This document shows positions 9,288 through 38,211 of a stretch of 52,265 nt of DNA, one piece after another (position 1 is the stretch's first letter; the number at the start of each line of letters is the position of its first letter). The stretch is from Polaromonas sp. (GTDB taxonomy: Bacteria; Pseudomonadota; Gammaproteobacteria; Burkholderiales; Burkholderiaceae_C): NCBI GenBank assembly GCA_031423655.1, contig JANPFZ010000274.1:1-52265 (forward strand), written 5' to 3'. The notes below the pieces were generated by a model. It saw only the letters and a list, made by a program, of their open reading frames with translations. It was not told the DNA's origin and searched no databases. Both the position numbers and the translations under genes were made by a program.

Positions 9288-9306
9288 GGAATTTTCTCCT
9301 CAAGGT

Positions 9307-15020: not shown

Positions 15021-15058
15021 TGAAATCCCTTGAAAGTGAAGGCCAATGGATTACCGGA

Positions 15059-16102
15059 TCAGGGAATCAGCACCGCTCGGCCCTTGACCTTGCCGTGGTG
15101 CAGATCCAGCAGCGCCTGATTCGCGTCCTTCAACTTGTACTCGCGCGTGGCCAGATGCACCAGGCCACGGTCTGCCAGTGCCATCAGCTCTACCAGCTCT
15201 GGATAAGTGCCCACCAGGTTGCCGATGATGCTTTTTTCGCTGGTGACCATATCGATGGTCGGCAGCTCGATCTTGCCGCCGTAGCCAACGATGTAGTAGC
15301 TGCCGGCGTTTCGCGTCATCGCCAGCCCTTTGGCGATGGCATCGCCTTCGCCCACAAAGTCGATCACAGCCTCGGCCCCCTTGCCTTTCGTCAGCTCCAG
15401 CACCCGTGCAACTTCGTTGCCGTCGGCCTTGACCAAGTGGTGAGCGCCGCATTCCTTGGCCAGTTGAAGCGCCATATCGGAACGGTCCACGATGATGATT
15501 TCAGCAGCGCAGAGCGCCGCCAGCACTTGAATGCCGATATGGCCCAGACCGCCCGCACCAATGACTACCGCATATTCGCCCGGCAGCAGATGGCGCGAGG
15601 CCTTTTTTGCAGCGCGGTAGGCGGTGAGGCCGGCGTCGGTGTACGGAGCAACGTCTTTGGGCGCAAGCGTCTTGGGCAGCTTGATCAGCGAGCGTTGGTC
15701 GGTGCGCAGGTACTCGGCATAACCGCCATCAGCGTTGATGCCGGGAAAACGGCTATCTTCGGCGTGCATGTCATCACCGCGCCGGCAAGCCAGGCAGTGG
15801 CCGCTCGTTACCAGCGGGTGGCAGATCACCGCATCACCGACCTTCACGCCAGTAACTGCCGAGCCCATGGCCTCGACCCAGCCGGCGTTCTCGTGGCCCA
15901 TGATGTAGGGCAGCTTGACCTCGACCTTGCTGCGCCAGATGCCCTCGACCACGTGCAGGTCAGTGCGGCACACGCCAGCGCCGCCAATGCGCACAATCAC
16001 ATCGGTCGGGCTCTCAATTTTTGGATCGGGCACGTCTTCGTAGCGCACAAAGGCACCACTGCTGAGCGACTCGTCGTACTCGTGCAGTACAGCAGCTTTC
16101 AT
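15059..16102 (-). CDS. NAD-dependent zinc alcohol dehydrogenase
   Basis: GVCRTDLH, GHENAG, GAGGLG. Start ATG 16102 (MKAAVLHEY) follows an AAGGAAG SD and lies downstream of the sigma54 promoter. Confidence 0.92.
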   Translation of the reverse strand: MKAAVLHEYDESLSSGAFVRYEDVPDPKIESPTDVIVRIGGAGVCRTDLHVVEGIWRSKVEVKLPYIMGHENAGWVEAMGSAVTGVKVGDAVICHPLVTSGHCLACRRGDDMHAEDSRFPGINADGGYAEYLRTDQRSLIKLPKTLAPKDVAPYTDAGLTAYRAAKKASRHLLPGEYAVVIGAGGLGHIGIQVLAALCAAEIIIVDRSDMALQLAKECGAHHLVKADGNEVARVLELTKGKGAEAVIDFVGEGDAIAKGLAMTRNAGSYYIVGYGGKIELPTIDMVTSEKSIIGNLVGTYPELVELMALADRGLVHLATREYKLKDANQALLDLHHGKVKGRAVLIP

Positions 16103-16189
16103 ATTTTGTCTTCCTTGTGTTTGGAGGAATGCGGCGGGTGATGCATTCCGGTGGTGACACATTCGAATGTCACTTTGCTGCAATCTGGT

Positions 16190-16205
16190 AGCAACCACCG
16201 TGCCA
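16190..16205 (-). promoter_or_regulatory. sigma54 -24/-12 promoter of adh-cobW-WD40 operon
   Basis: Minus strand TGGCACGGTGGTTGCT, an exact TGGCAC-N5-TTGC consensus. Confidence 0.85.
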
Positions 16206-18821: not shown

Positions 18822-19358
18822 ATGTTTAAATTTATATCAATTTTGGCAGGTTCCCTGCTTTTTGGGGGCATGACCGCGTCGCCTGCCATGGCTCAACAGA
18901 CTGGCAATCAGGCATCAAAGTCCGTTGATGCCACGCTCTCTGTGTTCCGGGTCGGTAAATCCGCAGAGGGAAAAGAAACTTTGCTGCCCGCCGACAAAGC
19001 CGCGCCTGGCGACACGCTGGAATACCAAACCGTTCATAAAAACAACGGCAAATCCACCATCAAGTCACTGGTGGCCACGCTGCCCTTGCCGGACGGCATC
19101 AGCTACCTGCCAGGCAGTGCCAAGCCCGCCAATGCCGAGGCCAGCGTAGACGGCAAAGTTTTTGCCGCCATTCCGCTCAAAACCATGGTCAAAAATGCCC
19201 AGGGCAAGCTTGAAGAGCGGCCGGTGCCTTATTCAGACTACCGCGCCCTGCGCTGGGCACTGGGCGAATTGCCTGCCAATGACCAGGCAACCGTCAGCGC
19301 GCGAGCCGTCGTTGACCCTGTTTCTGGTGCCGTCGCCACGCCGCAGAAGGCGAAGTAA
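18822..19358 (+). CDS. small secreted single DUF11-like domain, C-terminally truncated and lacking isopeptide residues (putative chaperone/cap, operon 1)
   Basis: Signal peptide (..SPAMA/Q), AAPGDTLEY..KNNG, TLPLP in place of TDxLP, RWALGEL. Alternative start GTG 18810. Confidence 0.8.
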   Translation: MFKFISILAGSLLFGGMTASPAMAQQTGNQASKSVDATLSVFRVGKSAEGKETLLPADKAAPGDTLEYQTVHKNNGKSTIKSLVATLPLPDGISYLPGSAKPANAEASVDGKVFAAIPLKTMVKNAQGKLEERPVPYSDYRALRWALGELPANDQATVSARAVVDPVSGAVATPQKAK

Positions 19359-19592
19359 CGTGCCCTTCCTCAACGTGCAAAACACCCGCACGCTTCGCAG
19401 CGCAGTCCGCGCTGCCCGCCAGGCCCTCCAACTTCACTCCATTGTTGCACTGGATCCCCCTGTGCAAAGGAGGGTACCCAATAGCTAACGCCTGCGGCGC
19501 GGCGAAGAGTTCGAGGAAAAGTTAGTGAACGTCCCGCTTTAGTTTTCAGTTTTATTTTTAGTAGAAATCAATTTAACGAGGAGATGTCAGAA

Positions 19593-22241
19593 ATGACTCA
19601 CACATCAAACCCATGGTCCAGTGCCGGAGCAAAGCTCCAGAGCATCTGGATCGCCTTCGCGGCTATCGCTGTTTTCTTCCTGCTCTTTGCCGGGTCCGGT
19701 CACGCGGCATCGCCGCTGGCCGGCACCAGCATCGGTAACCAGGCTTCGGCCACCTATGTTGACGGTTCAGCCGTCACGCGTTCGGTCTCGTCGAACGTGG
19801 TTTCAACCATCGTGCAACAAGTCGCTGCGCTGACCATCACGCAAAACTTGTCCAAAACGGCTGCGGCCGGCACTCAGGTCAGCTACCCGGTCACTTTGAC
19901 CAACACGGGTAACGGCTCAGACACTTTCGCGTTGAGTCAAGCCAATTCCGGCGGGTTTACCTTTACGTCGGTCAGCTTCTATGCTGACGCCAACGGCGAC
20001 GGTGTTGCGGACAACACAACGCTCATTACCAGCACGGGTAACCTGGCCCCCGGCACGGTTTTCCGCTTCGTTGCTGTGGGCAATGTGCCCACTACCGCGA
20101 CCACCGGGGCCATCGACACACTGGTGATCACGGCCACTTCCGGCTTCGCCCCCGCTGTTTTTGCGGCTGTAACGGACACAACCACTATCACCGCAAACGC
20201 CGACATCAACGCCACCAAGACGATGAGCGCGGTGTCGGGTGCGTCAGGTTCCGGTCCCTATACGGTCACTTTGAGCTACAACAACACCGGCAATATCGCG
20301 GCCAGCGCCGTCAAGCTGACCGACGCGCTGCCAGTCGGCATGACCTACGTCGCAGGCTCGGGTCGTTGGAGCGTGACTGGCGCCACCGCGCTGTCTGATG
20401 CAACAGGCGACCTCAATGGCACGGCTCCGACCATCGATTACAGCGTCACCGGCAACACCGTCACGGGCATCATCAGTAGCGTGGCTGCAGGCCAGGCGGG
20501 TACCCTGACATTCCAGGTCAGCATCAACGCTAATCTGGCGGCAGCGCCGTTGAACAACACAGCGACGTTTGCCTACAACGATGGCGCCGCCGCTATTCCG
20601 ACCGCCAATACCAACACGTTTGTGTTCAGTGTGAACCAGACCGCCAGCGTCACTGCAGCCGGTTCGACGGTTGCCAGCGCCGCCCAAGGCAGCACGGTGA
20701 CTTTCAGCAACGTGTTCACCAACACCGGCAACGGTATCGACAGCTTTGATGTGGCAATTTCCACGTCGTCCTTCCCGGCAGGCAGCTCGTTCGCCCTGTA
20801 CAAGGCTGACGGCGTCACGCCGCTGGTCGATACCAATGGCAACGGCATTCCCGATACCGGTCCAGTGACGGGCATCTTGACGGCCCCTAACAACACCTAC
20901 ACCGTGGTGTTGAAAGTGACCCTGCCAGCCGGTGTCACCGGTGGCCCTTACAGCGTATCCAAAACCGCCACGTCGAAGTTTGACCCGACCAAGATCGCAA
21001 CGGCCACCGACACCCTGACGACCATCGCCGTCAACACGGTGGACTTGACGAACAGCATCAACGCCAGCACGACTTCCAGCATTGCAAGTCTGGGTGTGGG
21101 CCCGTTCGCAGGAGCGGGCGCCGGAACCATCGTTACCAACGCCACCAATCCGGGCACCACGACGCGCTTCACGCTGAATGTTGTTAATGGATCAGGTTCC
21201 ACCGGAGACACCTTTAATCTGGCTGCCAGTACCGATTCGACTTTTGGCTCGTTGACCTTGCCATTTGGCTGGACCGTGGTTTTCCGTGACAGCGCCGGAA
21301 CGGTGGTCACCAACACCGGTATCGTCGCGCAGAATGCCACAGCGACAGTATTTGCTGACGTGACGGTTCCGGCCGGCCAAGCCGCCATTCCTGGTGGTCA
21401 GGTCATCACCTTCCGTGCGTTGTCGCCTTCGACGGGTTCCGCCGACAAGATCACGGATTCAGTGATCGTCAACACCATCCGAAGCGTGACCGTGACGCCA
21501 ACCAACGTGGGCCAAGTGGTTCCCGGTGGCAGCGTGATCTACACCCACACCATCACCAATGCGGGTAACGTTGCCGAGAATATTGATGCCACTCGTACCA
21601 TTGGTTTGTCCTTGAGCGAGACGCAAGCCGGCTTCACCTCCGTCGTGTACCTTGATGCGAACAACAACAATATCATCGACGCCACTGATCCGGTCATTAA
21701 TACGGTGGCCGATCTCGGCTCCATCGCGGCTGGTGCCAGCAAGCAGTTGTTGGTCAAAGTGACGGCGTCGTCCGGTGTTGGTATCGGCGTGGTGAACACC
21801 ACCACGCTGACGGCCACCACGGCGGGCTTGATCAATGGCGCGAATGCACCTGTCATCGTCAGCACAACGGACACCACTACCGTGATCTCCGGCAACATCG
21901 TGCTGCTCAAAGAGCAGGCGCTGGATGCAGCTTGCGATGGCACGCCGGATACCGCTTATTCGGTGGCAACCATCACGACAGGTGCAATTCCTAACGCGTG
22001 TATCCGCTATCGCGTGACTGCTACGAACAACGGCTCTGCCAATGTTGATAGCCTGGTTCTGAGCGACGCGACACCAGCGTCCACGACGTACATCGCTGGT
22101 ACCAACCCGGCCGTGACCGTGCCTGCTAGCACGATCACCGCGCCGACAACCGGCAACGCCGGCACTATCAGCGCCACCATCGGCACGCTGACGCCTTCCG
22201 CCTCGGTCGTTCTGACCTTCGGCGTGAAGATCAATCCGTAA
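19593..22241 (+). CDS. secreted multi-Ig/DUF11 protein with N-terminal donor strands and C-terminal acceptor domain (putative major shaft subunit, operon 1)
   Basis: GAGGAG SD 9 nt before ATG 19593 (ORF track start 19584). Signal peptide ..GHA/ASPLAGTSIGNQASATY; ends LTFGVKINP. Confidence 0.85.
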   Translation: MTHTSNPWSSAGAKLQSIWIAFAAIAVFFLLFAGSGHAASPLAGTSIGNQASATYVDGSAVTRSVSSNVVSTIVQQVAALTITQNLSKTAAAGTQVSYPVTLTNTGNGSDTFALSQANSGGFTFTSVSFYADANGDGVADNTTLITSTGNLAPGTVFRFVAVGNVPTTATTGAIDTLVITATSGFAPAVFAAVTDTTTITANADINATKTMSAVSGASGSGPYTVTLSYNNTGNIAASAVKLTDALPVGMTYVAGSGRWSVTGATALSDATGDLNGTAPTIDYSVTGNTVTGIISSVAAGQAGTLTFQVSINANLAAAPLNNTATFAYNDGAAAIPTANTNTFVFSVNQTASVTAAGSTVASAAQGSTVTFSNVFTNTGNGIDSFDVAISTSSFPAGSSFALYKADGVTPLVDTNGNGIPDTGPVTGILTAPNNTYTVVLKVTLPAGVTGGPYSVSKTATSKFDPTKIATATDTLTTIAVNTVDLTNSINASTTSSIASLGVGPFAGAGAGTIVTNATNPGTTTRFTLNVVNGSGSTGDTFNLAASTDSTFGSLTLPFGWTVVFRDSAGTVVTNTGIVAQNATATVFADVTVPAGQAAIPGGQVITFRALSPSTGSADKITDSVIVNTIRSVTVTPTNVGQVVPGGSVIYTHTITNAGNVAENIDATRTIGLSLSETQAGFTSVVYLDANNNNIIDATDPVINTVADLGSIAAGASKQLLVKVTASSGVGIGVVNTTTLTATTAGLINGANAPVIVSTTDTTTVISGNIVLLKEQALDAACDGTPDTAYSVATITTGAIPNACIRYRVTATNNGSANVDSLVLSDATPASTTYIAGTNPAVTVPASTITAPTTGNAGTISATIGTLTPSASVVLTFGVKINP

Positions 22242-22270
22242 GCCTTAACCAGACATTAGCTAAACGGTTC

Positions 22271-22335
22271 GCGGGGAGAGCATGGCTCTTCCCGCTTTTC
22301 AACGGGCACTTGCAACAGTGCCCGTTGAAAAGCGG
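22271..22335 (+). terminator. terminator-like hairpin with U-tract overlapped by a second 19-bp perfect inverted repeat
   Basis: GCGGGGAGAGC-ATG-GCTCTTCCCGC-TTTT (22271-22299); arms 22292-22310 and 22317-22335 are exact reverse complements. Confidence 0.65.
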
Positions 22336-22400
22336 CCGCAAAACCAGCCCAAGCCTCTTCATCGCATGTTTCTCGATCAACCCTCTGTGAAAGTTAGCCG

Positions 22401-25400
22401 GTGCGCAGCCTAGTTGCACGCCTTATTAGTCTTTTTCTGGCGTCGCTGTTGCTCCTGGCATCGGCGTATGCCGCCACGCCGCTGGCGGGCCTGCGCATCA
22501 ACAACCAGGCCAGGGCAACCTTTTTTGACACCAACGCTGGCTTCTTCTCCACGCTGAATTCCAATACCGTCGTGGTCATCGTCCAGCCGGTGGAGGCGGT
22601 ACAAATTCGCCCGGCACAAACCTTTAATCGCTCACCTGGCTCTTTCGCTGTTTTCCCGTACCGCGTGACCAACAGCGGCAATGTAACTGCCACCTACGCG
22701 CTGACCTTCGGCAACACAACGGGCGACAACTTTGATCTGACGGGCCTGACGCTCTACCGCGACATCAACGGCAACGGCGCGGCCGATACCGGTGAGCCCG
22801 TGCTCGCCGCAGGCAGCACCATTACTCTGGCACCCGGCGAAAGTGCTGACGTGGTGTTGCAGGGGCAAATCGGTGCCGCCGTGTCACTCGGGCAAACCGC
22901 GCTGGTGAATTTCACCGCTACCAGTCAGCTGCAGGGCGCGACCCGCACCGTGACTGACACCGTGTTGACCGCTTTGGGCGCCAGCATGCGGCTGCAAAAG
23001 GGCGTTTCAAAGCTAAGCGCAGTCACCGCCGAGGTACTGACCTACACGCTGACCGTGCAGAACACCGGCAGTACCGCTGCCACGGGCGTGCCCGTGACGA
23101 TTGACGGCAGCCCTGTATCGCGGGTCGTGGTGCGTGATGCGATTCCCGCCAACACCGCGTTCGTGCGGTTGGGCCCGGCCGGCCCCGGAACACCGCTGTA
23201 CCACAGCGCTGGCACCGATGCCAATACCTACACGTCCACACCGCCCGCCAATCTGGCGCTGGTTGATGCCGTGGGTTTTGGCTTCGCCAAAATTGACCCC
23301 GGCCAGACCGTGGTGCGGACCTTCGACGTAAAAATCAATAGCAACGCGAGTGGCGATATTTTCAACACGGCAAAAGTCGGTTTTAACGACGGTTTGTCAG
23401 CGGTAGCAGCGTCAGTTGATTCGAACCAGACCACGACGACGGTTCCCAAGCTGCCGCCGACGATTGCCTATTTCCGGGACGCCGCTTTCGCGCAACCAAT
23501 CAACGTGGCCCACACGGAGCAGGTCGCTTATGTGCAGGCCAGCGCAGCGCAGTGCAATCTTGATGCGGCAAGGGTTGAGAGCTACACCGTCATCATCAAG
23601 TCGGCCATCACGGGCGACGTTGAGAGCTTCATCGCAACCGAGACGGGTCTGAATACAGGAACCTTCCGCATCGTGCCGAGTATTACCCTCACGAGCCAGG
23701 CTGGTCGTCCGGGTGACACCATACTCAACACCACGAAAAACGACACCCTTGGGGCCACCATGCTGGGTTGTGGTGGGAATGAGATCAATGTCAATTTGCT
23801 CATCGACCCCTATGGCGTGGTGTACGACGGTCGCAGCAATGCGCCGGTCAGCGGCGCCACCGTGGTCTTGTTCAACGTCAGCACCAATTCACCCGCAGTC
23901 GTTTTTCAGGCCGACGGTGTGACTCCCGCCCCCAATACGGTGGTGACCGGGTCCACCGGCCAGTATGAGTTTCCGACCGTCGCGCCGGACATGTATAAAT
24001 TGCTGGTAACCCCGCCAGGCGGCTACAGTTTTCCGTCGGTGCTGGCGCCGGCGCTTCTGGCTGCCGGTCGGGCTACCGATCCAAAAGGCTCGTATGGCGG
24101 AGAGTTCCTGGTGAGCCTGGCCACTGGCCCGGTGCGTATTGATGTGCCACTCGACGCCAGCAACCTGGGCGGCTTGTCCGTTGAAAAAACGGCGTCACGC
24201 TCAACCGTTGATCTGGGCGAGTTTGTTGACTACAGTGTCAAGATAAAAAACAGCAGCGGCCAACTGCTAGGACAGATACAGCTCGAAGATCACCTGCCAG
24301 CAGGTTTTGCCTATGTGCCGGGCAGCGCTCGCCTGAACGCAGGCACCGCGCGCCTTGATGGGTCAAAGGTGCCCGAGCCCGAGGGGGGCATCGGTCCCAA
24401 GCTCATTTTTAACGTGGGCTCCATTGCCGACAGCGTCGTCCTCACCATGAGTTACCGCGTTCGTGTGGGTCCGGGAGCCCTGCAAGGTGACGGTATTAAC
24501 CGTGCCCAGGCTTTTAGCGCGCGAGTCACTACGGGAATTGTGACCAAGGCCAGCAATATCGCAACCGCCACCGTGCAGGTGTTGCCGGGTGTTTTCAGTG
24601 ACCGGGGCTTCATCGTCGGCAAGGTGTTTGCTGACTGCAACCGCGACCGCATTCAAAACGCCGAAGAACGCGGCATTCCAGATGTGCGCCTGTACATGGA
24701 AGACGGCACCTTCGTGACCACCGACGCCGAGGGCAAATTCAGCCTCTACAACATTCGCCCCCAGACCCATGTGCTCAAGGTTGATGCCACCACCTTGCCC
24801 GAGGGTGCCCGACTGGCGGTGCTTGATGCGCGCAACGCGGGCGACGCGGCCACGCGTTTCGTCGATATGAAAAAAGGGCAGCTTTTAAAGGTGAACTTTG
24901 CTGTCGATGGTTGTGCCGTGGCCGTGCAGGAGGCCATTGACCTGCGGCTGCAGCGCGCCCGCGCCGGCTCTGAAGCCGAATTCGCCGTCAAGGCCCGCAT
25001 CACGGCCGATGGCGTCGCGCCACTGGTTGACGTCAAAGGCTTGCCCGCCAGCGGCCTTGTCGGCGTGAAAACGCCACTCATCACCAGCCCCGGTGTGAAG
25101 CCTGCTATTGCCTCGCCGGCAAAGCCTGGCACCACTTCAGAACGCCTCGACCTCGATAAATTGATGCCGACGTTTGACGCCAGGCTGCAGATTGTCAGTC
25201 CCACCGACAAACAGACCTTTGGTGTTGCGCAGACAGATGTTCTCGTCAAAGGCGCAGCCGGCAGCGACTTCCGCCTGCGCGTCAATGGCGTTGAAATATC
25301 GCAAAAACGCGTGGGCCGTAAAAGTGTTCTGGATTCCAGCGGCGTCCAGGCCTGGGAATACATCGGCGTTGATCTGAACCCTGGGCTGAACAACATTGAG

Positions 25401-28247
25401 CTGGAGCAAGTCGATTCATTTGGCAATGTGCGCGGTAAAACCGCCGTTCAGGTCAGCGCTGCCGGCAAGTTCTCCAAGCTAAGCGTGCAGGTGCCGCCCA
25501 CCGGCGTTCCTGCCGACGGCCGTAGCATGACCGAAGTGACCCTGCTTTTGACTGATGCCGAAGGCCTGCCGGTCAAGGGTCGCATTCCCGTGACGCTGGA
25601 AACCTCCATCGGCATCTGGCAGGCTGAAGACCTCGACAAAAAAGAGCCGGGCCTGCAGCTTTTCGCGGAAGACGGCGAAGCCAGGCTCATGCTGCTGTCG
25701 CCGCTCGACCCGGGCGAGGCAGAAATTCGCGCGGCATCGGGGGGCATCAAGTCCTATGCAATTGTGAAGTTCTTGCCCGAGCTGCGCCCCCTGATCGCCG
25801 CTGGCGTGATTGAAGGTGCAATTAATTTCAGAAGCCTCAACGCCCAGGCGTTGCAGCCGACGCGGTCGCAAGACGGGTTTGAGCAAGAGTTGCGGCATTT
25901 TTCACGCACCAGTGCCGACGGCAAACGCGACGCCGGCGCACGGGCTGCGTTGTTCCTAAAAGGCAAAGTCAAAGGCGACTATCTGTTAACGCTGGCCTAT
26001 GACTCCGACAAGGCATCCAAAGAACGTCTGTTCCGCGACATTCAGCCCGACGAGTTCTACCCCGTTTATGGTGACGATTCGGTCAAGGGATTTGACGCGC
26101 AATCTACCGGCCTGTTCTATGTGCGGGTAGACAAAGGCAGCTCGTATGCGCTGTATGGTGACTACACCACTCAAAGCCAGACGGCGTTTTCAAGCGGGCC
26201 GACCCGTCAGCTGAGCCAGTACAGCCGCAGCCTGAATGGCGCGCGGACCCATCTTGAGGGCGAGCAAGGTAGCCTGAATGCGTTCGCGGCGCGGACCAGC
26301 TCGCGCTCTTTCACTGAAGAATTTGCAGCGCGCGGCGTGTCGGGCTACTACCCGCTGGGCCGTACCAATATTGTTCCGAACAGTGAAAAAGTCGAGATTC
26401 TTACGCGCGACCGCAACCAGCCCACCATCATTTTGAACGCTGTGCCGCTCGCGCGTTTCACTGACTACGAAATCGAGTCGCTGAGTGGCCGCCTTCTATT
26501 TAGAAATCCTATTTCGACGCTTGACCAGAACTTCAACCAGATCTCTATTCGCGTCACCTACGAGTTTGAGCAGGGTGGTCCCCAGTTCTGGGTTTACGGC
26601 GTCGATGGACAAGTCAAGCTGGGCGATCGGGTTGAAGTGGGCGGCACCCATGTGCGCGATCAAAACCCGTTTGACAACTTCTCCATGCAAGGTGCCAATG
26701 TCGTCGTCAAGCTAGCCGAAAAAACCACCCTTAATGCCGAAGTCGCGCAAACCAGCAATGTCATCTCCGGCTCTGGCAAGGGCGCGCGGGTAGAGCTGAA
26801 GCACGAAGGCGAGCAGTTGCAGGCGCAGGCGTTTGCAGGCAAAACCACGGCGGGTTTCGACAACCCCAGCGCTTTGCTCAGCAAGGGGCGGGCAGAAGCC
26901 GGCGCCAAGGCCAAACTGAAGATTGACGACCTGACCAACATCAAGGTCGAGGCTATCCGCAGCGAAGACGCCATCACCAAAGGTGCGCGTGATGGCGCCC
27001 TGGTGGTCGTCGAGCGCAGCCTGGGTGAGAACCTTAACGGCGAAATCGGTCTGCGCTATTTCAAGGAAACAGCCATCCCGGCAGACCTCAGCACCTTGGG
27101 CGTGACGCCCAATGAAGGCACGGCGGCCCGCTTCAGGCTGTCGGGGCCGGTGCCCCATGTCTCAGGGCTCACCGTATTTGGCGAGTACGAGCAAGATATT
27201 GCCAACAGCGAAAAAAAAATGGCCGCCATCGGCGGTGAATACGGCTTGTATGAACGCAGCAAGCTTTACTTGCGCCATGAGCTGATATCCAGCCTGGGCA
27301 ACCGCTACACGCTCAACAGCACGCAGCAGCAAAACGCCACCGTGTTGGGTATCGATGCCGGCTACCTTGACGAAGGACGGGTCTTTAGCGAATACCGCCT
27401 GCGCGACGCCCTGACCGGACGCGAAGCCGAGGCCGCAATGGGTCTGCGTAACTTCTGGACGGTAGCCGAGGGCCTGCGCATCCAGGCTGGCCTGGAGCAG
27501 ATTCGCACCCTGAACGGCGTTGACCACCGAAGCGTTGCCGTAACAGGCGGTGTTGAGTACACCGCCAATCCGGACTGGAAAGTCAGCGCCCGTCTGGAAT
27601 ACCGCACCGACGTGTCGTCCAAACAGTTGCTAAGTACTGTCGGCCTGGCCTACAAAGTTTCCAGCGAATGGACCTTCCTGGGGCGCAATGCGCTGCAGAT
27701 CCAACAGGCCAAAACGGCCACCGGCGGCCGCAAGACGCAAGATCGTCTTCAGCTTGGCATGGCTTACCGCGACAGTGCCGTCAATCAATGGGACGCCCTG
27801 GGCCGCTATGAGCTAAAGCACGAAAGTGACGACATTGCGGTGGTACAAACCAAGCGGACGGCGCACATTGTATCGACCCACCTGAGCTACCAGCCGCAGG
27901 CTGATTTGGCGTTCTCGGGCCGCTACGCCGGTAAATATGTGCTCGAAGATTCCCTCGGCATCAGCAGCCGCTACACCGCGCATCTGCTGTCTGCGCGGGC
28001 CGACTACGACATTGCCCGTGACTGGACGATTGGAGTCAATACCGGCGTTTTGTTCAGCGCCGGCATGCGCAGCCGTCAGGGGGCATTGGGCGCGGAGCTG
28101 GGCCGCGTACTGACCAAAAACCTGTGGCTGTCCGTCGGCTACAACCGTTTTGGCTTCCGTGACGACGACCTCGCCAGCGAGGGCTACACCAGCAAAGGCG
28201 TGTTCCTCCGCCTGCGCTACAAGTTTGACGAGAATTTGCTGAATTGA
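22401..28247 (+). CDS. 1948-aa protein: donor strands, Ig/DUF11/SdrD-B-like stalk, large C-terminal outer-membrane beta-barrel (putative anchor/secretion pore, operon 1)
   Basis: Signal peptide AYA/ATPLAGLRINNQARATF; two complete DUF11 domains; roughly 800 aa of amphipathic beta-strands ending GVFLRLRYKF. Confidence 0.82.
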   Translation: MRSLVARLISLFLASLLLLASAYAATPLAGLRINNQARATFFDTNAGFFSTLNSNTVVVIVQPVEAVQIRPAQTFNRSPGSFAVFPYRVTNSGNVTATYALTFGNTTGDNFDLTGLTLYRDINGNGAADTGEPVLAAGSTITLAPGESADVVLQGQIGAAVSLGQTALVNFTATSQLQGATRTVTDTVLTALGASMRLQKGVSKLSAVTAEVLTYTLTVQNTGSTAATGVPVTIDGSPVSRVVVRDAIPANTAFVRLGPAGPGTPLYHSAGTDANTYTSTPPANLALVDAVGFGFAKIDPGQTVVRTFDVKINSNASGDIFNTAKVGFNDGLSAVAASVDSNQTTTTVPKLPPTIAYFRDAAFAQPINVAHTEQVAYVQASAAQCNLDAARVESYTVIIKSAITGDVESFIATETGLNTGTFRIVPSITLTSQAGRPGDTILNTTKNDTLGATMLGCGGNEINVNLLIDPYGVVYDGRSNAPVSGATVVLFNVSTNSPAVVFQADGVTPAPNTVVTGSTGQYEFPTVAPDMYKLLVTPPGGYSFPSVLAPALLAAGRATDPKGSYGGEFLVSLATGPVRIDVPLDASNLGGLSVEKTASRSTVDLGEFVDYSVKIKNSSGQLLGQIQLEDHLPAGFAYVPGSARLNAGTARLDGSKVPEPEGGIGPKLIFNVGSIADSVVLTMSYRVRVGPGALQGDGINRAQAFSARVTTGIVTKASNIATATVQVLPGVFSDRGFIVGKVFADCNRDRIQNAEERGIPDVRLYMEDGTFVTTDAEGKFSLYNIRPQTHVLKVDATTLPEGARLAVLDARNAGDAATRFVDMKKGQLLKVNFAVDGCAVAVQEAIDLRLQRARAGSEAEFAVKARITADGVAPLVDVKGLPASGLVGVKTPLITSPGVKPAIASPAKPGTTSERLDLDKLMPTFDARLQIVSPTDKQTFGVAQTDVLVKGAAGSDFRLRVNGVEISQKRVGRKSVLDSSGVQAWEYIGVDLNPGLNNIELEQVDSFGNVRGKTAVQVSAAGKFSKLSVQVPPTGVPADGRSMTEVTLLLTDAEGLPVKGRIPVTLETSIGIWQAEDLDKKEPGLQLFAEDGEARLMLLSPLDPGEAEIRAASGGIKSYAIVKFLPELRPLIAAGVIEGAINFRSLNAQALQPTRSQDGFEQELRHFSRTSADGKRDAGARAALFLKGKVKGDYLLTLAYDSDKASKERLFRDIQPDEFYPVYGDDSVKGFDAQSTGLFYVRVDKGSSYALYGDYTTQSQTAFSSGPTRQLSQYSRSLNGARTHLEGEQGSLNAFAARTSSRSFTEEFAARGVSGYYPLGRTNIVPNSEKVEILTRDRNQPTIILNAVPLARFTDYEIESLSGRLLFRNPISTLDQNFNQISIRVTYEFEQGGPQFWVYGVDGQVKLGDRVEVGGTHVRDQNPFDNFSMQGANVVVKLAEKTTLNAEVAQTSNVISGSGKGARVELKHEGEQLQAQAFAGKTTAGFDNPSALLSKGRAEAGAKAKLKIDDLTNIKVEAIRSEDAITKGARDGALVVVERSLGENLNGEIGLRYFKETAIPADLSTLGVTPNEGTAARFRLSGPVPHVSGLTVFGEYEQDIANSEKKMAAIGGEYGLYERSKLYLRHELISSLGNRYTLNSTQQQNATVLGIDAGYLDEGRVFSEYRLRDALTGREAEAAMGLRNFWTVAEGLRIQAGLEQIRTLNGVDHRSVAVTGGVEYTANPDWKVSARLEYRTDVSSKQLLSTVGLAYKVSSEWTFLGRNALQIQQAKTATGGRKTQDRLQLGMAYRDSAVNQWDALGRYELKHESDDIAVVQTKRTAHIVSTHLSYQPQADLAFSGRYAGKYVLEDSLGISSRYTAHLLSARADYDIARDWTIGVNTGVLFSAGMRSRQGALGAELGRVLTKNLWLSVGYNRFGFRDDDLASEGYTSKGVFLRLRYKFDENLLN

Positions 28248-28252
28248 TTTTG

Positions 28253-31200
28253 ATGCGCTTATCTTCTTTTTTGCGGACCTGGTTGGCGACCTTTGTTGCG
28301 TTTGGCCTCGCGCTCGCGCTGATGCTGGCAAGTCCGGCGGCGTCGGCTGCGATCACTTTTGATCCGACGCCCTCCACTGGCAGTTCCATCTCGAACCAGA
28401 TGGAAATCATTCAGGACGCTGGCAACGCCGCGCTGTCGGGGGCGTATCTGGGTGTGCGGTTTAGCAGCAACATAGCACTCACCAATGTTTACGCACGCGC
28501 AACGGTGGGCGGCACGAGTTACGTACTCGATGCAACGGAAGCGCAGGATCATTTTATTGGCGACTTGAGCGGTACAGCTAAAACTTCCTATTGGTTCATC
28601 AACTACCCGACCAGCGGCAATGGCACGTTCACCGTACAGATCTACGCCGGTAACCCTGCGGCTGGGGGTGTGTTGCAAGGTACTTCAACTACATATACTG
28701 TAAGTAGTGCTAACGCAGACAACTCTGCTTCAGCAAACAAGATCGTCAGCGTCGCGGTGGTGCCGTCCAGCCTTCAGCTCGGCCAGACCTTCAACGTCGT
28801 GGTTTGCTACAGCGTGAACTCGACTGCCAGGCTGCTGGTACAGCCCGCCATCAGCTCAGCCTTCGACCCGAACAACCTGCGCCTGGGCAATGTGGTGGTC
28901 GATATTTACGGCAGCGCCGACTGTACTGGTGCAGCCACGGCGACGTTGGCAAACCAACTCCTGTTCGAGGGGCCGATCTCATCGAACAGTGCCCGGGCAA
29001 CCTACACGTTTCAAACCGTCGGTACCGTTAGCGTGGCGCTGACACCCATTGTCAGCGCGCGCAGCGGCATCTACAAGTACAACGCCGATTTCAATACGCC
29101 TCCCGCCGGCGTGAGCTACACCGTTCCGGCGCCGTCCAACAGCGTTACGCTGGCCAAGAGCGTGAACATCGCCACGAACTCGGTCGGAAACATCACCGTC
29201 ACCTACACGATCACCGCCACCAATGCCGGGTCTGCATCCGTGGTGCTGGACCAGATCATCGACACGCTGCCGTCCAGCCCCGGCGCGGTGACCTACACCG
29301 CGAACAGCACGACGGTAAATGGCAGCGCCCAGGCCAGCTTCAACCCAGTGGTCTCGGGGCAGACGCTGACCTGGGGTAGCACCGGAAACGCAGGCACCAC
29401 GTTCACCGTTCCGGCTGGTGGCACCATGACCATGGGTTTCAATGCTGTCATTCCTGCTGCCAACGGTGTCTACATCAACAGCGCGATCGCAAAGATAAAT
29501 ACCACCCAGATTGACGCGACGGCGGCTACCGGGGACAGTGCACCCGCCACTGCCACGACCCGCATCGGTCCACCGGTGCTGGTGATCACCAAGACTGCGG
29601 ACACGCCGACGATCATCAACACAGCTGCAGGTACCACGGCGCGCTACACCCTCAAGGTGACAAACAGCGGTACTGTAGCGACCAGCGTCATGCTGAACGA
29701 TACCGCGTTGCCCTCGGGGTTTGCGTACCTGGCCACGGTGGCCGTTAACACCCCAACCAGCGGCAGTTGCCCAACCGCCGCCACGCGCACCAGCGCGGTC
29801 AATCCTGTTGTTGGGGCCACCAGCCCGAGCTGGGGGAGTTTCAGCATTCCGGGTGGTTGCGAGGTGTCCGTGCAGTTTGACGCCAGCGTGGCAAGCAGCG
29901 TGGCCGACGGCACTTACAGCAATAGCGCCACCACGACCACAGCGACAGCGGGTGCCACCATCACCAACTTCGATGGCACGCCGACAGCAACCATTGCTGA
30001 CAACGTGACAGTGACCAGCCCGGTGCTGGCGGTAACAAAAACCACCAGCACGCCGAACGTCGCGCCTTTGGGTACTGCGACATACACCATTACCGTCACC
30101 AACAGCGGTACGGCAAACGCGGCTGGCACCAGGGTGACCGATACCTTGCCAGCAGGTTTCGTCTACACCGGCACAACCAGCGTGACGGTCAACGGCGCTG
30201 CTACTGCGGCCTATACGGCCGGAGGTACGGTAGCGGCACCGCAGTGGGATACCAACCCTGCAGGTGGCTTTACTGTCAACGCAGGCCAAACGCTGGTCAT
30301 TGTTTTCAATGCAACCGCGGTGGCGACGGCTGGAACCTACAACAACGATGCGTCCGCGACAAGCACTAATGCCAGGAGCATCACCAACTTTGTCGGTACA
30401 GCCAGCACTACAGAAGATGTGACAGTATCAAACATTATTTTGGCGGTGACCAAAACGACCAGCACGCCCACCGTCGTCAATACAGTGACCGGCACCACCG
30501 CCGCCTACACTGTTACCGTCACCAACAACGGCAGTGCCAGCGCCACCGGAGTCAAACTCAGCGATACGCTGCCGGCCGGGTTCACTTTTGCCAGCACCAG
30601 CAGCGTCACGGTGAACGGCGCGGCCGTGTTGCCTGCCAATTACACGCGTGCCGGTACGGCAAGCGTTCCCACTTGGGACACCAATCCGACAGGTGGCTTT
30701 ACCGTCGAGGCGGGCAAGGCTTTGGTCATTGCGTTTGTCGCCAATGTGGTCAATACGGTAGCCGATGGGGTGTACAACAACAGCGCCACTACCACCAGCA
30801 CCAACGCGACCAGCATCACCAACTTTGACGGTGCGCTAGCCGCCAATACCGGCGAAGATGTCACTGTGACCAGCGCGGTGCTGGCTGTGACCAAGACCAC
30901 CGGCACGGCAACCGTCGTCAACACATCCATAGGCACGACGGCTGCTTACACTGTTACCGTGACCAACAGCGGATCGGCCAGCGCCACCGGTGTGAAAGTC
31001 AGCGACACCCTGCCGGCCGGCTTCAGTTACTCCAGCACCAGCAGCATGACGCTCAACGGCGCGGCGGTTTTGCCTGCGAATTACCTGGCTGCCGGCACGG
31101 CGGCTGTGCCGACCTGGGACACCAGCCCAACGGGCGGCTTCACAGTCAATGCCGGTAGCACCCTGGTGATTGCCTTCATGGCCAATGTCGCCAGCACGGT

Positions 31201-34003
31201 GGCCGATGGCATTTACAACAACAGCGCCAGCACCACCAGCACCAACGCCAAAACCATTGCAAACTTCGACGGCGCGGCCAGCACGACAGAAAACGTCACG
31301 GTCACCAGCGCGGTGCTGGCGGTGACCAAGACCGCTGGCACGCCGACCGTCGTCAATACATCCACAGGTACGACGGCAACCTACACCGTCACCGTAACCA
31401 ACATCGGCAGCGCAAATGCCTCAGGCGTGAAGGTCAGCGACACCCTGCCGGCCGGTTTCAGTTACGCCAGCACCAGCAGCGTGACGGTCAACGGCACGGT
31501 GGTCGCACCTGCCGGCTACACCACAGGCGGCACTGCGGGCGTGCCGGCCTGGGACACCAACCCGACGGGCGGTTTCACCGTCAATGCCGGGCAAACCTTG
31601 GTCGTCACCTTTGTGGCCAATGTCGCCAGTACCGTGGTCGACGGCATCTACAACAACAGCGCCAGCACCACCAGCACCAACGCCAAAACCATCACCAATT
31701 TCGACGGCGCGGCCAGCACGACAGACAACGTCACCGTTACCAGCGCAGTGCTTGTGGTGACCAAGACCACCGGCACCGCGACCGTGGTCAACACCTCGAC
31801 AGGGACCACTGCCAGCTACACCGTCACCGTCAAAAACAATGGCAGCACCGCGGCCACCGGCGTAGTGTTGACCGACACCCTCGCCGCTGGCTTCGGCTAC
31901 AACGGCGGTGCTGCCACCGTGACCTTGAACGGCACGGTGCTGGCAACGACTGCTTACACCGAAACGGCTGGCGCCAGCCCAACCTGGACGACCAACCCGG
32001 CCGGCGGTTTCACCATCAATGCTGGCGCAACGCTGGTGGTGACGTTTGCTGCGAACGTTGCCAGCAGCGTGGCTGATGGAACCTACAACAACAGCGCCAG
32101 CGTCACCAGCACCAACGCCAGCAGCATTGCCAACTTTGATGGCGCAGTGAGCACGACAGAAAACGTCATCGTCACCAGCGCCGTGCTGGCGGTGACCAAA
32201 ACCACCAGTACGCCGACCGTCACCAATTCCGCCAGCGGTACAACTGCAACCTATGCCATCACGGTCGCTAACACAGGCACGGCCAACGCCATTGGGGTGA
32301 AGGTCAGCGACACGCTGGCGGCCGGTTTCACCTACGCCAGCACCAGGAGCGTGACGGTCAATGGTGCCACTACGACGGCCTATACCGCATCCGGCACTAC
32401 GACCGCAAGTTGGGACACCAACCCCACCGGAGGCTTCACCATCAATGCCGGGCAAAACCTGGTGATCACTTTTGCGGCCAATGTGTCTTCAGCCGTAGCA
32501 CCTGGCACCTACAACAACAGCGCATCGGCCACCAGCACCAACGCCAAGGCCATCAGCAACTTCGATGGCGCGGCCAACATCAGCGACGACGTGACTGTGA
32601 GTGCGCCGGTTGGCGTGTCACTGTATGGCACTACCTATAACGACGCCAATCACAACCTGCAGCTTGATGGCGGCGAGAGTGGCACTGGTCTGACTTTGTA
32701 CGCCAAGCTCATTCCAGGCGCAGGCGGCAGCGCCTTGCAGGCGGTGGCCGTGAACCCCAGCACGGGCGCGTACACCCTGGTTACGGTGTCGCCGGGTAAC
32801 TACAGCATTATTTTGGACGACAACAATGTGCTGACCGACACCACGCCCACCGTTCCGGGCGGCTGGATTGGTACCGAGATGGCCGATTTCCGGCGCACCA
32901 ATGTGCAGGTTGCCGCGACCGATTTGCAAAACCTGAACTTCGGCCTGTTCAATGGCGGCAAGCTTTCGGGCCTTGTGTTTGGTGACATCGGTAGCGGCAC
33001 AGGCATAGCCAACAACGGGATAAAAGAGGGCTTGGAAGCGGGCGTCGCTGGCGTCGCCGTCAAAGTGACCAACGCGGCTGGCACCAGCATGTATGACAGC
33101 ACCGTCACTTCGGCCGATGGGAGCTACACGCTCTGGATTCCGACCGCAACAATCGCCGCCAGCCTGAAAATTGTTGAAACCAACCTGAGCGGCTACCTGT
33201 CAACCGGCGCCTCGGTGGGCAACACCGGCGGCAGTTACGACCGCGCCAGCGACAGCATCACTTTTGGCAACGTCAGCGGCGGCATCTTCACCGGCGTCAA
33301 TTTTGGTGACGTGCCGGTCAACCGCTTTGTGACCAACGGCCAGCAAAGCGGCTCGCCCGGCAATGTAGTGTTTTACCCGCACCAGTTCAATGCTGGCAGT
33401 GGTGGTTCGGTCAATTTAAGTGTCGTCAGTGCCAGCAGCTGGCCTGTCGTCATGTACCGCGACCTGAACTGCAACGGCGTGGTTGATGCACTCGACAGCG
33501 TCGTCAGCGCCGCAACAAGCCTGGTTGCCAACGAGCAGCTGTGCATTGTCAACAAAGTAAGCATCCCGGCTGGGACGGCCGTGGGAGTGCAAGATGCCGC
33601 TACGCTGCAGGCTGTATTTACCTATACCAATGCCAACCCGGCGTTGGCCGCCACGCTACTGGTCATTGACAGCACCACGGTCGGTGCGGGCTCGGCCGGA
33701 CTTGTACTGACCAAAACCACCGACAAAGCCACCGCTTTACCTGGCGACACCATTACTTATACGGTGGCCTATCAGAACAACAGCAGCACGCCCATCGGCA
33801 CCATCGTCATCAGCGACGCCACGCCCGCTTTTACGACCTTTGTATCGGCAGGGTGTGCCTTGCCACTGCCTGCGGGCATCACCGCCTGTAGTACAAGCAC
33901 TCAACCGGCTGTCGGTGGTCAAGGCGGACTGCAGTGGACGTTGACCGGCGCACTCAACCCCGCATCTGCAGGGCAGGTTGTGTTTGCGGTGAAGGTGAAT
34001 TGA
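28253..34003 (+). CDS. large Thr/Ala-rich adhesin with 8 tandem DUF11 repeats, SdrD-B-like domains and a C-terminal acceptor domain (putative tip adhesin, operon 1)
   Basis: Signal peptide ..PAASA/A; repeats VLAVTK..YTVTVTN.G..SDTLP..YNNSA; ends VVFAVKVN. Confidence 0.85.
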   Translation: MRLSSFLRTWLATFVAFGLALALMLASPAASAAITFDPTPSTGSSISNQMEIIQDAGNAALSGAYLGVRFSSNIALTNVYARATVGGTSYVLDATEAQDHFIGDLSGTAKTSYWFINYPTSGNGTFTVQIYAGNPAAGGVLQGTSTTYTVSSANADNSASANKIVSVAVVPSSLQLGQTFNVVVCYSVNSTARLLVQPAISSAFDPNNLRLGNVVVDIYGSADCTGAATATLANQLLFEGPISSNSARATYTFQTVGTVSVALTPIVSARSGIYKYNADFNTPPAGVSYTVPAPSNSVTLAKSVNIATNSVGNITVTYTITATNAGSASVVLDQIIDTLPSSPGAVTYTANSTTVNGSAQASFNPVVSGQTLTWGSTGNAGTTFTVPAGGTMTMGFNAVIPAANGVYINSAIAKINTTQIDATAATGDSAPATATTRIGPPVLVITKTADTPTIINTAAGTTARYTLKVTNSGTVATSVMLNDTALPSGFAYLATVAVNTPTSGSCPTAATRTSAVNPVVGATSPSWGSFSIPGGCEVSVQFDASVASSVADGTYSNSATTTTATAGATITNFDGTPTATIADNVTVTSPVLAVTKTTSTPNVAPLGTATYTITVTNSGTANAAGTRVTDTLPAGFVYTGTTSVTVNGAATAAYTAGGTVAAPQWDTNPAGGFTVNAGQTLVIVFNATAVATAGTYNNDASATSTNARSITNFVGTASTTEDVTVSNIILAVTKTTSTPTVVNTVTGTTAAYTVTVTNNGSASATGVKLSDTLPAGFTFASTSSVTVNGAAVLPANYTRAGTASVPTWDTNPTGGFTVEAGKALVIAFVANVVNTVADGVYNNSATTTSTNATSITNFDGALAANTGEDVTVTSAVLAVTKTTGTATVVNTSIGTTAAYTVTVTNSGSASATGVKVSDTLPAGFSYSSTSSMTLNGAAVLPANYLAAGTAAVPTWDTSPTGGFTVNAGSTLVIAFMANVASTVADGIYNNSASTTSTNAKTIANFDGAASTTENVTVTSAVLAVTKTAGTPTVVNTSTGTTATYTVTVTNIGSANASGVKVSDTLPAGFSYASTSSVTVNGTVVAPAGYTTGGTAGVPAWDTNPTGGFTVNAGQTLVVTFVANVASTVVDGIYNNSASTTSTNAKTITNFDGAASTTDNVTVTSAVLVVTKTTGTATVVNTSTGTTASYTVTVKNNGSTAATGVVLTDTLAAGFGYNGGAATVTLNGTVLATTAYTETAGASPTWTTNPAGGFTINAGATLVVTFAANVASSVADGTYNNSASVTSTNASSIANFDGAVSTTENVIVTSAVLAVTKTTSTPTVTNSASGTTATYAITVANTGTANAIGVKVSDTLAAGFTYASTRSVTVNGATTTAYTASGTTTASWDTNPTGGFTINAGQNLVITFAANVSSAVAPGTYNNSASATSTNAKAISNFDGAANISDDVTVSAPVGVSLYGTTYNDANHNLQLDGGESGTGLTLYAKLIPGAGGSALQAVAVNPSTGAYTLVTVSPGNYSIILDDNNVLTDTTPTVPGGWIGTEMADFRRTNVQVAATDLQNLNFGLFNGGKLSGLVFGDIGSGTGIANNGIKEGLEAGVAGVAVKVTNAAGTSMYDSTVTSADGSYTLWIPTATIAASLKIVETNLSGYLSTGASVGNTGGSYDRASDSITFGNVSGGIFTGVNFGDVPVNRFVTNGQQSGSPGNVVFYPHQFNAGSGGSVNLSVVSASSWPVVMYRDLNCNGVVDALDSVVSAATSLVANEQLCIVNKVSIPAGTAVGVQDAATLQAVFTYTNANPALAATLLVIDSTTVGAGSAGLVLTKTTDKATALPGDTITYTVAYQNNSSTPIGTIVISDATPAFTTFVSAGCALPLPAGITACSTSTQPAVGGQGGLQWTLTGALNPASAGQVVFAVKVN
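30434..32603 (+). repeat. coding tandem repeat, 435-nt period (DUF11 units)
   Basis: Units start at 30875, 31310, 31745 and 32180 (exact 435-nt spacing), with a near-identical unit from 30434. Confidence 0.9.
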
Positions 34004-34974: not shown

Positions 34975-36003
34975 GTGACTCTTTTTGTATCTGTCTGTCC
35001 AATAGGAAAGTGCCTCGCTGCGTTGGCCGCTGCCGTGGTCGGCCTGGCCACGTTCAGCGTATTTGCGGCCGGTACGCCAGCCGGCACACCTATTGCCAAC
35101 TCGGCCACGCTGAGCTATTCCATTGGCGGCCAGGTCGGCGTCCCGCTGACTGCGTCTGCACCGGTGATCACTGTCGCCGAGCTGATCAACGTGGTGTTGA
35201 CCTGGCAAGACGGAACGCCGGTAAGCGTGAATTCGCCCGACCCCGGCAAGGCGCTGGCCTTTTTGCTGACCAACACCGGCAACGGTCTGGAAACCTTCCG
35301 GCTTACCCGCAACAACGCAATTGCGGGCGACCAGTTTGACCCGGTCAGTGCGCCCACCGGCTCGGTCTACCTTGAAAGCGGCTTGCAAGCGGGTTTTCAG
35401 GCCACCGGCCCGAATGCCGACATCGCGTATGTGGCGGGCGTTAACGACCCTGCCCTGGCGGCAGACGCCAGCAGAACGATTTATCTTTACAGCAGCATCC
35501 CGGCTGGCCAGGCTACGGGCGCCCTGGGCTACGCCAGCCTCACGAGCGTATCGACCACAGTTGGCGCGCCCGGCGCTGTGCCGGGTACCACGCTGACCGG
35601 CCTGGGGCAGGGTGGCGTTGACGCGGTCGTCGGCGGCAGCCGGGCGCAGGCTGTTGCGCAGGGCACGTACATCGTCTCGGGTATCGCGCTCAGTGTGGTG
35701 AAGGCTGTTGTTGCGGTGCAAGACCCACAGGGCGGGGCCGTCGTGATGCCAGGCGCCGTGCTGACCTACCGCGTCACGCTTGCCCTGACCGGAGTTGGCA
35801 TCGCCGACAACCTGTCGTTTAGCGATCCACTGCCGCTGGCTACCACCTTTGTGCCTGCCAGCATCACCGTGGATGGCAGCGCCAGAACCGACGCCGTTGA
35901 CACCGACAACGCCAGTTTTTCTGCGGGCGCGGTGGCCGTGGTGTTCGGAAACACCGCAGCGCCTGCCACCCGCGTCATTGAATTCAAAGCCACGGTTAAT
36001 TAA
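34975..36003 (+). CDS. secreted donor+acceptor DUF11 subunit (putative minor/adaptor pilin, operon 2)
   Basis: Start uncertain; GTG 34975 gives a normal signal peptide ..SVFA/AGTPAGTPIANSATLSY. Ends IEFKATVN. Confidence 0.78.
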   Translation: MTLFVSVCPIGKCLAALAAAVVGLATFSVFAAGTPAGTPIANSATLSYSIGGQVGVPLTASAPVITVAELINVVLTWQDGTPVSVNSPDPGKALAFLLTNTGNGLETFRLTRNNAIAGDQFDPVSAPTGSVYLESGLQAGFQATGPNADIAYVAGVNDPALAADASRTIYLYSSIPAGQATGALGYASLTSVSTTVGAPGAVPGTTLTGLGQGGVDAVVGGSRAQAVAQGTYIVSGIALSVVKAVVAVQDPQGGAVVMPGAVLTYRVTLALTGVGIADNLSFSDPLPLATTFVPASITVDGSARTDAVDTDNASFSAGAVAVVFGNTAAPATRVIEFKATVN

Positions 36004-36069
36004 TCGTTGCATCTCCCTGGCCAGCCCTAACCCGCCCTAACCCGCAACCACTCATTTCTGGAGCCCACC

Positions 36070-36606: not shown

Positions 36607-36844
36607 GCCGACGCAAGTCGTCCTCCCAGCATGAACACCCCCAATTTTGTTTTGCCCTGCGTTGTTGCCCTGGCCGTCACGCGTAGCCGCAGCCTTCAAA
36701 ACGCCATCGACGCGCCGGCCATCCTGGGGCCACCCGGCAGCTCCGGGCCACCAGCCTGCCGTCGGTGGCAAGCGGAGGGTCTGCCATCGACACCCTGAAG
36801 CAACACTCCAACAACAAATTTCTAGGTTCAACAACAGGAAAATC

Positions 36845-38107: not shown

Positions 38108-38138
38108 AGCGGGTCTTGAACCTGACTTTGAAAGTCTT

Positions 38139-38174
38139 GCAACCCTCCAGCGCGGTTCGCCGCCTGGGGTTTGC
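38139..38174 (+). terminator. GC-rich stem-loop after putative major subunit gene
   Basis: CCAG-C-GCGG-TTCG-CCGC-CTGG stem, extendable to GCAA/TTGC. Confidence 0.45.
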
Positions 38175-38211
38175 CCTGCGTTCGCTGAAGTATTCTTCAG
38201 CGGGCCTTGGC

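Follow-up and report, generated by a model that had tools for sequence, protein, structure and literature searches.

Introduction

The usher of chaperone-usher pili is a barrel of 24 strands whose plug sits on the periplasmic side, and these pili, together with the type IX translocon SprA, the type V systems, adhesins with CLIPPER (DUF11) stalks and several chaperone-light donor-strand polymers, are the closest described systems to the locus reported here. This locus lies in a 52,265-nucleotide stretch of Polaromonas sp. DNA (contig JANPFZ010000274.1 of assembly GCA_031423655.1; hereafter the window) and consists of two tandem operons on the + strand, g1-g4 (18822-34003) and g5-g9 (about 34975-48314), each of which encodes one giant protein, g3 (22401-28247, 1948 amino acids [aa]) and g8 (38212-43752, 1846 aa counted from the ATG at 38212), alongside small secreted proteins, pilin-like subunits and a long adhesin. 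Both g3 and g8 belong to an unnamed family of outer-membrane proteins, and the predicted barrel of each, of about 38 strands, likely exports a chain of folded immunoglobulin (Ig)-type subunits. The reading that we favour on balance is of a dedicated pore through which a covalently linked fibre leaves tip first, to be capped by the pore's own donor strands.

The resemblance to chaperone-usher pili is extensive: an operon with a small periplasmic protein, a major subunit, a large plugged barrel and an acceptor-only tip, donor complementation with N-termini directed away from the cell, and a terminator that anchors the rod, a part played by FimI in those pili (PMC12122975). An initial annotation of the window had called g3 and g8 usher-like, which holds for this logic and fails for descent, as neither protein matches the usher family (PF00577), no match to the PapD family was found, and the single usher match in the source genome is located on another contig. 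The systems also differ in their strand number (about 38 here), in the use of a two-strand donor with a predicted covalent bond, in the fusion of terminator to pore, in the multi-domain subunits of 340-900 aa, and in the position of the insert, which here occupies an extracellular loop.

SprA, a barrel of 36 strands (PMC10994853), is likewise a very large single-chain barrel for multi-domain proteins and has in common with g3 an inserted beta-sandwich and the three strands that follow it, but its length is about 2400 residues versus about 810 in the g3 barrel, and cargo here seems to be held by its C-terminal part, whereas type IX cargo is carried out C-terminal domain first. None of the nine operon genes belongs to a PorV or GldLM family, for which no genome-wide search was made. 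Type V systems (Va, Vb) also occur in fused (passenger-barrel) and split (cargo plus barrel gene) forms, which are separated by at least two changes on the tree described below; however, isopeptide-type Ig domains here make up the passenger, which has a polymerising donor-acceptor system, the barrel is about three times larger (about 38 strands in g3 versus 12 in a Va autotransporter), and no autotransporter match was found, nor any Pfam match to Omp85, POTRA or two-partner secretion domains in g3, g8 or 26 proteins of related loci.

The Lys-Asp-Asn triad of the CLIPPER domain (PDB 9IFR) is intact in stalk domain S4 of g3 and in the repeats of g4, and the adhesin from which 9IFR derives, with CshA_NR2, GEVED, a CLIPPER stalk and an OmpA anchor (PMC12617251), has the architecture of one cargo protein recovered here (L113), although in the present system the domain is split between polypeptides. 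The words 'barrel' and 'secretion' are absent from the main text of that paper. The Sulfolobus thread (Saci_0406), Clostridium perfringens BsaA and the haloarchaeal tafi are chaperone-light donor-strand polymers too, with intermolecular isopeptide bonds in the threads (PMC9715654) and BsaA (PMC11580942) and with tip, rod and terminator subunits in the tafi (PMC11821415), but their hosts have no outer membrane, they use no barrel and other subunit families, and they donate a single strand. The present system combines the logic of an usher pilus, with a pore-fused terminator, the fused and split forms of type V secretion and a segment of SprA, and it is a member of none of the three. Searches of open full text (PMC, bioRxiv; subscription papers and supplements were outside the scope) turned up no description of the barrel or the operon, and one study of outer-membrane barrels retains only those of 8-26 strands (10.64898/2026.03.07.710327).

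A CLIPPER domain split between subunits

Intact CLIPPER repeats in g4 (28253-34003, 1916 aa) agree with the crystal structure in the placement of Lys (first strand), Asp (mid-domain) and Asn (penultimate strand). The final domains of g2, g4, g5, g7 and g9 stop right before the Asn strand; the two strands that they lack form the mature N-termini of g2, g3, g5, g7 and g8. In g3 a signal peptide (residues 1-24, 22401-22472, read from the sequence) is followed directly by a donor hairpin with Asn35 (residues 25-63, 22473-22589), and g8 has its donor at 38299-38415; the donor peptide reported by the initial annotation was thus recovered in both proteins, and the matching hairpins and truncated acceptors support a donor that would complement the subunits. 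The major subunit g2 (19584-22241, 885 aa) has both halves, an N-terminal hairpin comprising the last two CLIPPER strands with the Asn (19707-19823) and a C-terminal acceptor with Lys and Asp that ends before the Asn strand (21897-22241), as do g5 (34975-36003, start codon uncertain, donor from 35068) and g7 (36845-38107, 420 aa, donor from 36938). The candidate tip adhesins are g4, a tandem CLIPPER protein with an acceptor at 33701-34003 that was not scored as a donor, and g9 (43809-48314, 1501 aa), which has an unassigned N-terminal head, DUF11/DUF7933 repeats, an acceptor at 47862-48314 and no donor. A short donor-like segment behind the signal peptide of g4 (28253-28450), unscored by the donor profile, may be a relic.

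Across related loci (designated by L numbers), pilin acceptors retained the Lys in 42 of 43 cases and the Asp in all 43, adhesin acceptors retained both in 12 of 12 and ended 1-3 residues past the last strand, and S4 held the full triad in 64 of 64. The two-strand donor pattern was present in 59 of the 61 fused barrel proteins whose 5' end is complete, versus 10% of shuffles and none of 18 barrel-only rows; the two misses were L004, which is without the Asn, and g8, in which the Asn strand is present and the second strand divergent. A one-strand pattern, found in 43% of shuffles, had been discarded as too loose, and a first donor profile overlooked many visible donors. At L018 and L028 the pilin acceptor continues in frame into the barrel donor, which rebuilds an intact CLIPPER domain, and pilin and barrel share one reading frame of 3150-3330 codons at L018:2624-12619, L028:2999-12517 and L057:3509-12973. 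The order of small protein, pilin, barrel and acceptor-only adhesin recurs in most long loci among those listed. Judged from these sequences, the incomplete Ig fold of one subunit is completed by the donor of the next. The Lys-Asp-Asn triad would then form a spontaneous intermolecular isopeptide bond, a proposal that draws on the conservation of the three residues, the natural fusions and the solved intramolecular case.

The small proteins g1 (18822-19358) and g6 (36070-36606) are secreted and acceptor-like and match DUF11 alone in Pfam and NCBIfam; g1 has no catalytic Asp and is a candidate reversible donor cap (chaperone), and in g6 an Asn replaces the Asp. No Asp stood at this site in 31 of 31 members of their family. 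The small protein was dropped as a marker of the system after 5 of 30 carrier genomes gave no barrel match, the loci examined being orphan or degraded; at L163-L166 and L168-L172 its gene is an orphan, neither pilin nor barrel being present in the stretches retrieved.

The predicted barrel

The proteins g3 and g8 align at 27% over 1140 columns (E 4e-89), carry all six of the motifs listed in the initial annotation once each and in identical order, and are the sole barrel genes detected in the source genome. They had been described as paralogues, and they are related; on the sequences, however, the duplication is not a recent one, because the two barrels belong to different deep subfamilies. 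In both, the last strand ends in Phe and is followed by a short tail (6 residues in g3, 22 in g8), as had been noted. Neither has an OmpA domain by Pfam or NCBIfam, also as noted, and this is a local trait, since relatives often have OmpA, either fused or as the next gene. The libraries label only the Ig-type stalk domains (DUF11/SdrD_B), in keeping with the Ig stalk first described, and leave the last 820 residues without a label; the region of about 810 residues has no family match and no PDB match, PDB sequence searches with the barrel (single sequence and profile) returned nothing significant, and a protein atlas contained only unnamed clusters for it.

An AlphaFold2 model of g3 residues 925-1948, built from 75 sequences, has a mean predicted local distance difference test score (pLDDT) of 78 and a predicted template modelling score (pTM) of 0.63, and shows two Ig domains followed by a run of strands. 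Its DSSP list gives 38 membrane strands in residues 1132-1942 (25794-28226), arranged as 7 strands, an insert of about 95 residues and 31 strands. The C-terminal region is accordingly predicted to form one barrel of about 38 strands, with the count least sure at the N-terminal end, which would make it far larger than the barrel of an autotransporter, as first proposed. The strand-rich region, first given as 750-800 aa, is slightly longer, at about 810 aa, the insert included. In g8 the barrel spans about 41152-43701 and the insert about 41656-41937. Hydrophobicity alternates in most g3 barrel strands in the alignment. Covariation among 379 sequences (effective number 211; in part the same sequences as used for the fold) placed 29 of the 37 neighbouring strand pairs above each of 666 non-neighbour pairs, paired strands 7 and 8 across the insert, and formed an unbroken ladder of neighbours from strand 6 to strand 38 with no strong non-neighbour pair, which supports at least 33 strands. 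Short turns alternate with long loops in the model, such that by strand parity both barrel termini are periplasmic and the insert lies in an extracellular loop; this fits the occurrence of an OmpA domain after the barrel in 9 of 19 long homologues, a set selected for having extensions. The most conserved loop of the barrel follows strand 3 (25983-26108, g3 residues ~1195-1236) and is a candidate cargo-binding loop, most of which has a pLDDT below 50 in the partner-free model.

Structural searches with the whole model retrieved many outer-membrane barrels at similar middling scores, none of them matching over the whole length: maltoporin (Z 14.9, root-mean-square deviation [rmsd] 7.1, 267 residues aligned), FimD (Z 13.8, rmsd 9.3, 326 aligned), PapC (Z 13.6, rmsd 5.5, 299 aligned) and SprA (Z 12.3, rmsd 8.3, 376 aligned). 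The ushers FimD and PapC tie with porins in this search, and Foldseek gave matches of low template modelling score only.

The region might instead be two smaller barrels or an open sheet. The pTM of just 0.63 and the strand 1-38 closure missing from the covariation would suit such a fold, but the covariation ladder is continuous from strand 6 to strand 38 without a strong non-neighbour pair, 16-strand barrels fit arcs only (rmsd 13-15), and the alignment of small porins over model residues 206-1018 brings the first and the last strand next to each other in the model. We give this alternative very little credence.

The inserted domain and SprA

The initial annotation had raised the possibility of a plug, and the model contains a plug-like beta-sandwich between strands 7 and 8 (g3 residues ~1298-1395, 26292-26585), a candidate lid or plug. 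Folded alone, the insert reached a pLDDT of 94. Its best structural match was a phage neck protein (Z 9.3, rmsd 3.2, 76 aligned), and SprA ranked second of 48,161 chains (Z 8.5, rmsd 2.5, 78 aligned, 22% identity); the two are tied within 1 Z, phage neck and tail domains and SprA lead the ranking, and PapC and FimD are absent among the 50 matches listed. Foldseek returned no match to the insert at E 0.001 or better.

SprA was tested because it presumably holds a motif similar to the insert. Against 30 SprA sequences taken from genomes, hhalign aligned the insert and strands 8-10 over 109 columns (probability 87%, E 3.8e-6) with a score of 68, versus at most 27 in one reversed and eight shuffled controls. 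When the barrel was compared in windows, this block reached 96% and the other four of five blocks did no better than reversed controls; similarity outside about 110 residues is not significant, and an apparent colinearity of strands 2-7 with the N-terminal strands of SprA was dropped on the same ground. Searched with the insert profile, the PDB did not yield SprA; individual SprA sequences reached E values of only about 1 with this profile, although they took most of the top ranks against 20,011 background open reading frames (ORFs). The insert and the next three strands are thus a local homology to the type IX translocon and not a sign of membership, given that the SprA family profile TIGR04189 has no match in the source genome (97% complete). 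The SprA profile also gave weak second matches at 601-689 in ORFs of 1050-1270 aa in many genomes of the phylum of G401 (e.g. G413:C1:1794296-1794445), which may be a further barrel family that shares the inserted domain.

Barrel-only relatives and probable export

The 18 barrel-only rows represent 17 distinct genes (L085 and L116 being one gene), and a donor was found in none. Directly upstream of 16 of the 17 lies a cargo gene bearing S4 near its C-terminus, followed by an S5 match in 15 of the 16; the cargo proteins seen whole or nearly so are mostly 1750-3400 aa long, and the relatives divide into two genes shortly after S5. Barrel-only genes with a separately encoded cargo argue for a translocon and make the subunit export proposed in the initial annotation a probable role on computational grounds. 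The cargo L113 combines a CshA_NR2/GEVED head with a C-terminal OmpA domain, and GEVED and OmpA are also present in L114; cargo of this type should span the outer membrane, as an adhesin head at one end is paired with OmpA at the other. In fused members OmpA lies between S4 and S5 (L129) or after S5 (L131) and never before S4 in 45 proteins scanned, which would put the boundary between inside and outside near S4. The single-chain cargo and the chain g4-(g2)n-g3 share one polarity.

On this basis, the distal stalk domains S1-S3 of g3 (22593-24170) are probably exported, S4, an intact CLIPPER domain (24174-24590; Lys596, Asp630, Asn700), is a candidate pore-resident domain, with its g8 counterpart at 39313-39681, and S5 (24591-24935, SdrD_B-like) is probably periplasmic. 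Two further Ig domains, S6 and S7, precede strand 1 (25173-25775) and would be periplasmic by strand parity; S7 is intimin/invasin-like. A predicted complex of barrel and S4 scored 0.58 versus 0.00 for the best control, with partner pLDDT of at least 77 and at least 70% of contacts agreeing between runs, which hints at S4 docking; 116 of the 157 solved pairs and 2 of the 215 mismatched pairs scored 0.58 or more, but of these only 18 solved pairs and both mismatches scored no higher than 0.60.

On a FastTree tree of 48 barrels, in which the fused labels of short loci are based on ORF length, the split state requires at least two changes, and g3 and g8 fall in different well-supported subfamilies. 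Donor pilins occurred in 20 of 401 sampled genomes, 19 of which have the barrel, versus 47 of 401 overall; the barrel-less exception holds only a 122-aa fragment.

Proposed mechanism and rival explanations

The mechanism that we propose begins with features visible in the sequence: all parts bear Sec-type signal peptides, subunits end in a CLIPPER domain minus its last two strands, and subunits and barrels begin with those strands. A donor would insert into an acceptor, and the Lys-Asp-Asn isopeptide bond between the two chains would form spontaneously. The acceptor-only adhesin (g4, g9) would lead, with subunits (g2; g5 and g7) joining at its base in the periplasm, where the Asp-less proteins g1 and g6 may reversibly cap donors. 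The chain would pass tip first through the barrel, past the extracellular insert acting as a lid, until the barrel's own donor ends it and ties the fibre to the pore. The initial annotation had left open whether the N-terminus nucleates or terminates the fibre; termination, or anchoring, fits better than nucleation because the barrel protein is without an acceptor, so that its donor can only end a chain. The stalk would trail the fibre outward as far as S4, with S5-S7 remaining in the periplasm, a boundary that follows from the OmpA insertions and the gene split points. Many relatives encode the entire chain as a single giant adhesin gene beside a barrel-only gene, which would be the same machine in a two-partner form. 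Overall, the interpretation first given to the two proteins is partly supported.

Several observations weigh against this mechanism. The fused barrel L004 is without the donor Asn, and locus counts are not independent, as the loci come mostly from related Betaproteobacteria. The chaperone role of the small protein is weakened by its occurrence alone, with no pilins or barrel nearby. No energy source or motor is encoded in either operon. A type II secretin is present in the source genome, and a GspE/PilB-type match in 31 of 37 barrel genomes. As strand 1 starts in the periplasm and the stalk root is periplasmic, export of the stalk can only be inferred. The closure of strand 1 on strand 38 was not recovered by covariation (2.7, within noise), which also misses pairs among strands 2-6 and leaves strands 2-5 poorly supported; the strand count may for these reasons be a few lower.

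The secretin and ATPase matches would suit a barrel that is an anchor only, an oversized autotransporter showing its own stalk while subunits exit by type II secretion and click onto the exposed donor outside. Several fused homologues do have 4-9 tandem DUF11 repeats in the stalk, much like an autotransporter passenger, and split-domain pairs of the SpyTag/SpyCatcher type bond without machinery. Against it, barrel-only relatives that have neither stalk nor donor still keep an upstream cargo gene in 16 of 17 cases, and six of the 37 barrel genomes, all scored as 100% complete, have no GspE/PilB-type ATPase match, among them two pilus-type genomes (G179, G276) in which the operons persist. Moreover, with a donor at the cell and a single donor-less end, a fibre growing outside could be captured only once its chain was complete. 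We regard the anchor-only arrangement as unlikely. Also rather unlikely is a side door like that of SprA, a translocon capped outside by the insert and long loops from which cargo exits laterally near strands 3-5 instead of passing a displaced plug. Strands 3-5 are short and their flanking loops have pLDDT below 50, the insert and strands 8-10 match SprA, and SprA is itself capped extracellularly with a lateral opening (PMC10994853); yet the insertions of SprA are far larger and it depends on PorV and a motor (PMC10994853), the operons here encode no carrier barrel, and the similarity to SprA does not extend significantly beyond about 110 residues.

The periplasmic position of both barrel termini, by parity and OmpA fusions, would also be compatible with a chain that never leaves the periplasm, serving as an envelope scaffold or tether beside a large channel for some other substrate. 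The cargo, however, bears CshA_NR2/GEVED adhesin heads, and tandem-Ig proteins of 2000-3400 aa far exceed the width of the periplasm. CLIPPER repeats, furthermore, have been described as stalks of surface adhesins (PMC12617251), and a periplasmic chain appears quite improbable to us. Tip-first export through a dedicated pore that caps the fibre accordingly remains our preferred explanation. Its widest form, which we put forward as a tentative and less than even proposition, is a new class of outer-membrane translocon, in which a barrel of about 38 strands, larger than SprA and sharing part of its ancestry, would thread chains of folded, self-bonding Ig subunits without motor or carrier, then use its own N-terminus to form the fibre's covalent base, and would also serve giant single-chain adhesins in many diderms.

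Further features of the window and related loci

Upstream of the operons, on the minus strand (3197-16198), lies an unrelated soluble di-iron monooxygenase cluster with two hydroxylase subunits, a reductase, a GroEL-like chaperonin, a porin, CobW and an alcohol dehydrogenase. Rfam elements were not found in the window, nor was a sigma-70 consensus upstream of g5. In related loci, Slam-type TPR barrel genes lie behind the pilus-barrel gene cluster at L004:19098-20930, L007:19092-20900 and, weakly, L075:19773-21224, and a FecR-domain gene at L008:7467-8966. Two barrel homologues (P0233, P0249) are extended by long C-terminal regions with MAP3K_TRAF_bd/TPR-S, a possible fusion or assembly artefact. 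An Acinetobacter haemolyticus plasmid carries the whole operon (L111:8095-21608), with the pilin gene in several pieces, adjoining a transposase and arsenic-resistance genes.

Distribution and significance

The nearest named relative is a Polaromonas metagenome-assembled genome, at 94%. The barrel family is large, with 2340 matches among 7990 scored candidates and 3338 representatives at 50% clustering, and the 47 barrel-bearing genomes make up about 12% of the 401 sampled from the phylum of the window. Named relatives belong to Pseudomonadota, and the barrel occurs also in Verrucomicrobiota, Balneolota and cyanobacteria.

If the proposed mechanism is true, these organisms would possess a further way to export proteins and assemble pili across the outer membrane. 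It would supply an export mechanism for adhesins with a surface head and a peptidoglycan-binding tail that lack a known exporter, the adhesin that yielded 9IFR being a candidate, and it would represent a Gram-negative fibre polymerised through sortase-free isopeptide bonds. The family would further be a source of natural tag-catcher pairs and a starting point for tracing how the type IX translocon arose.

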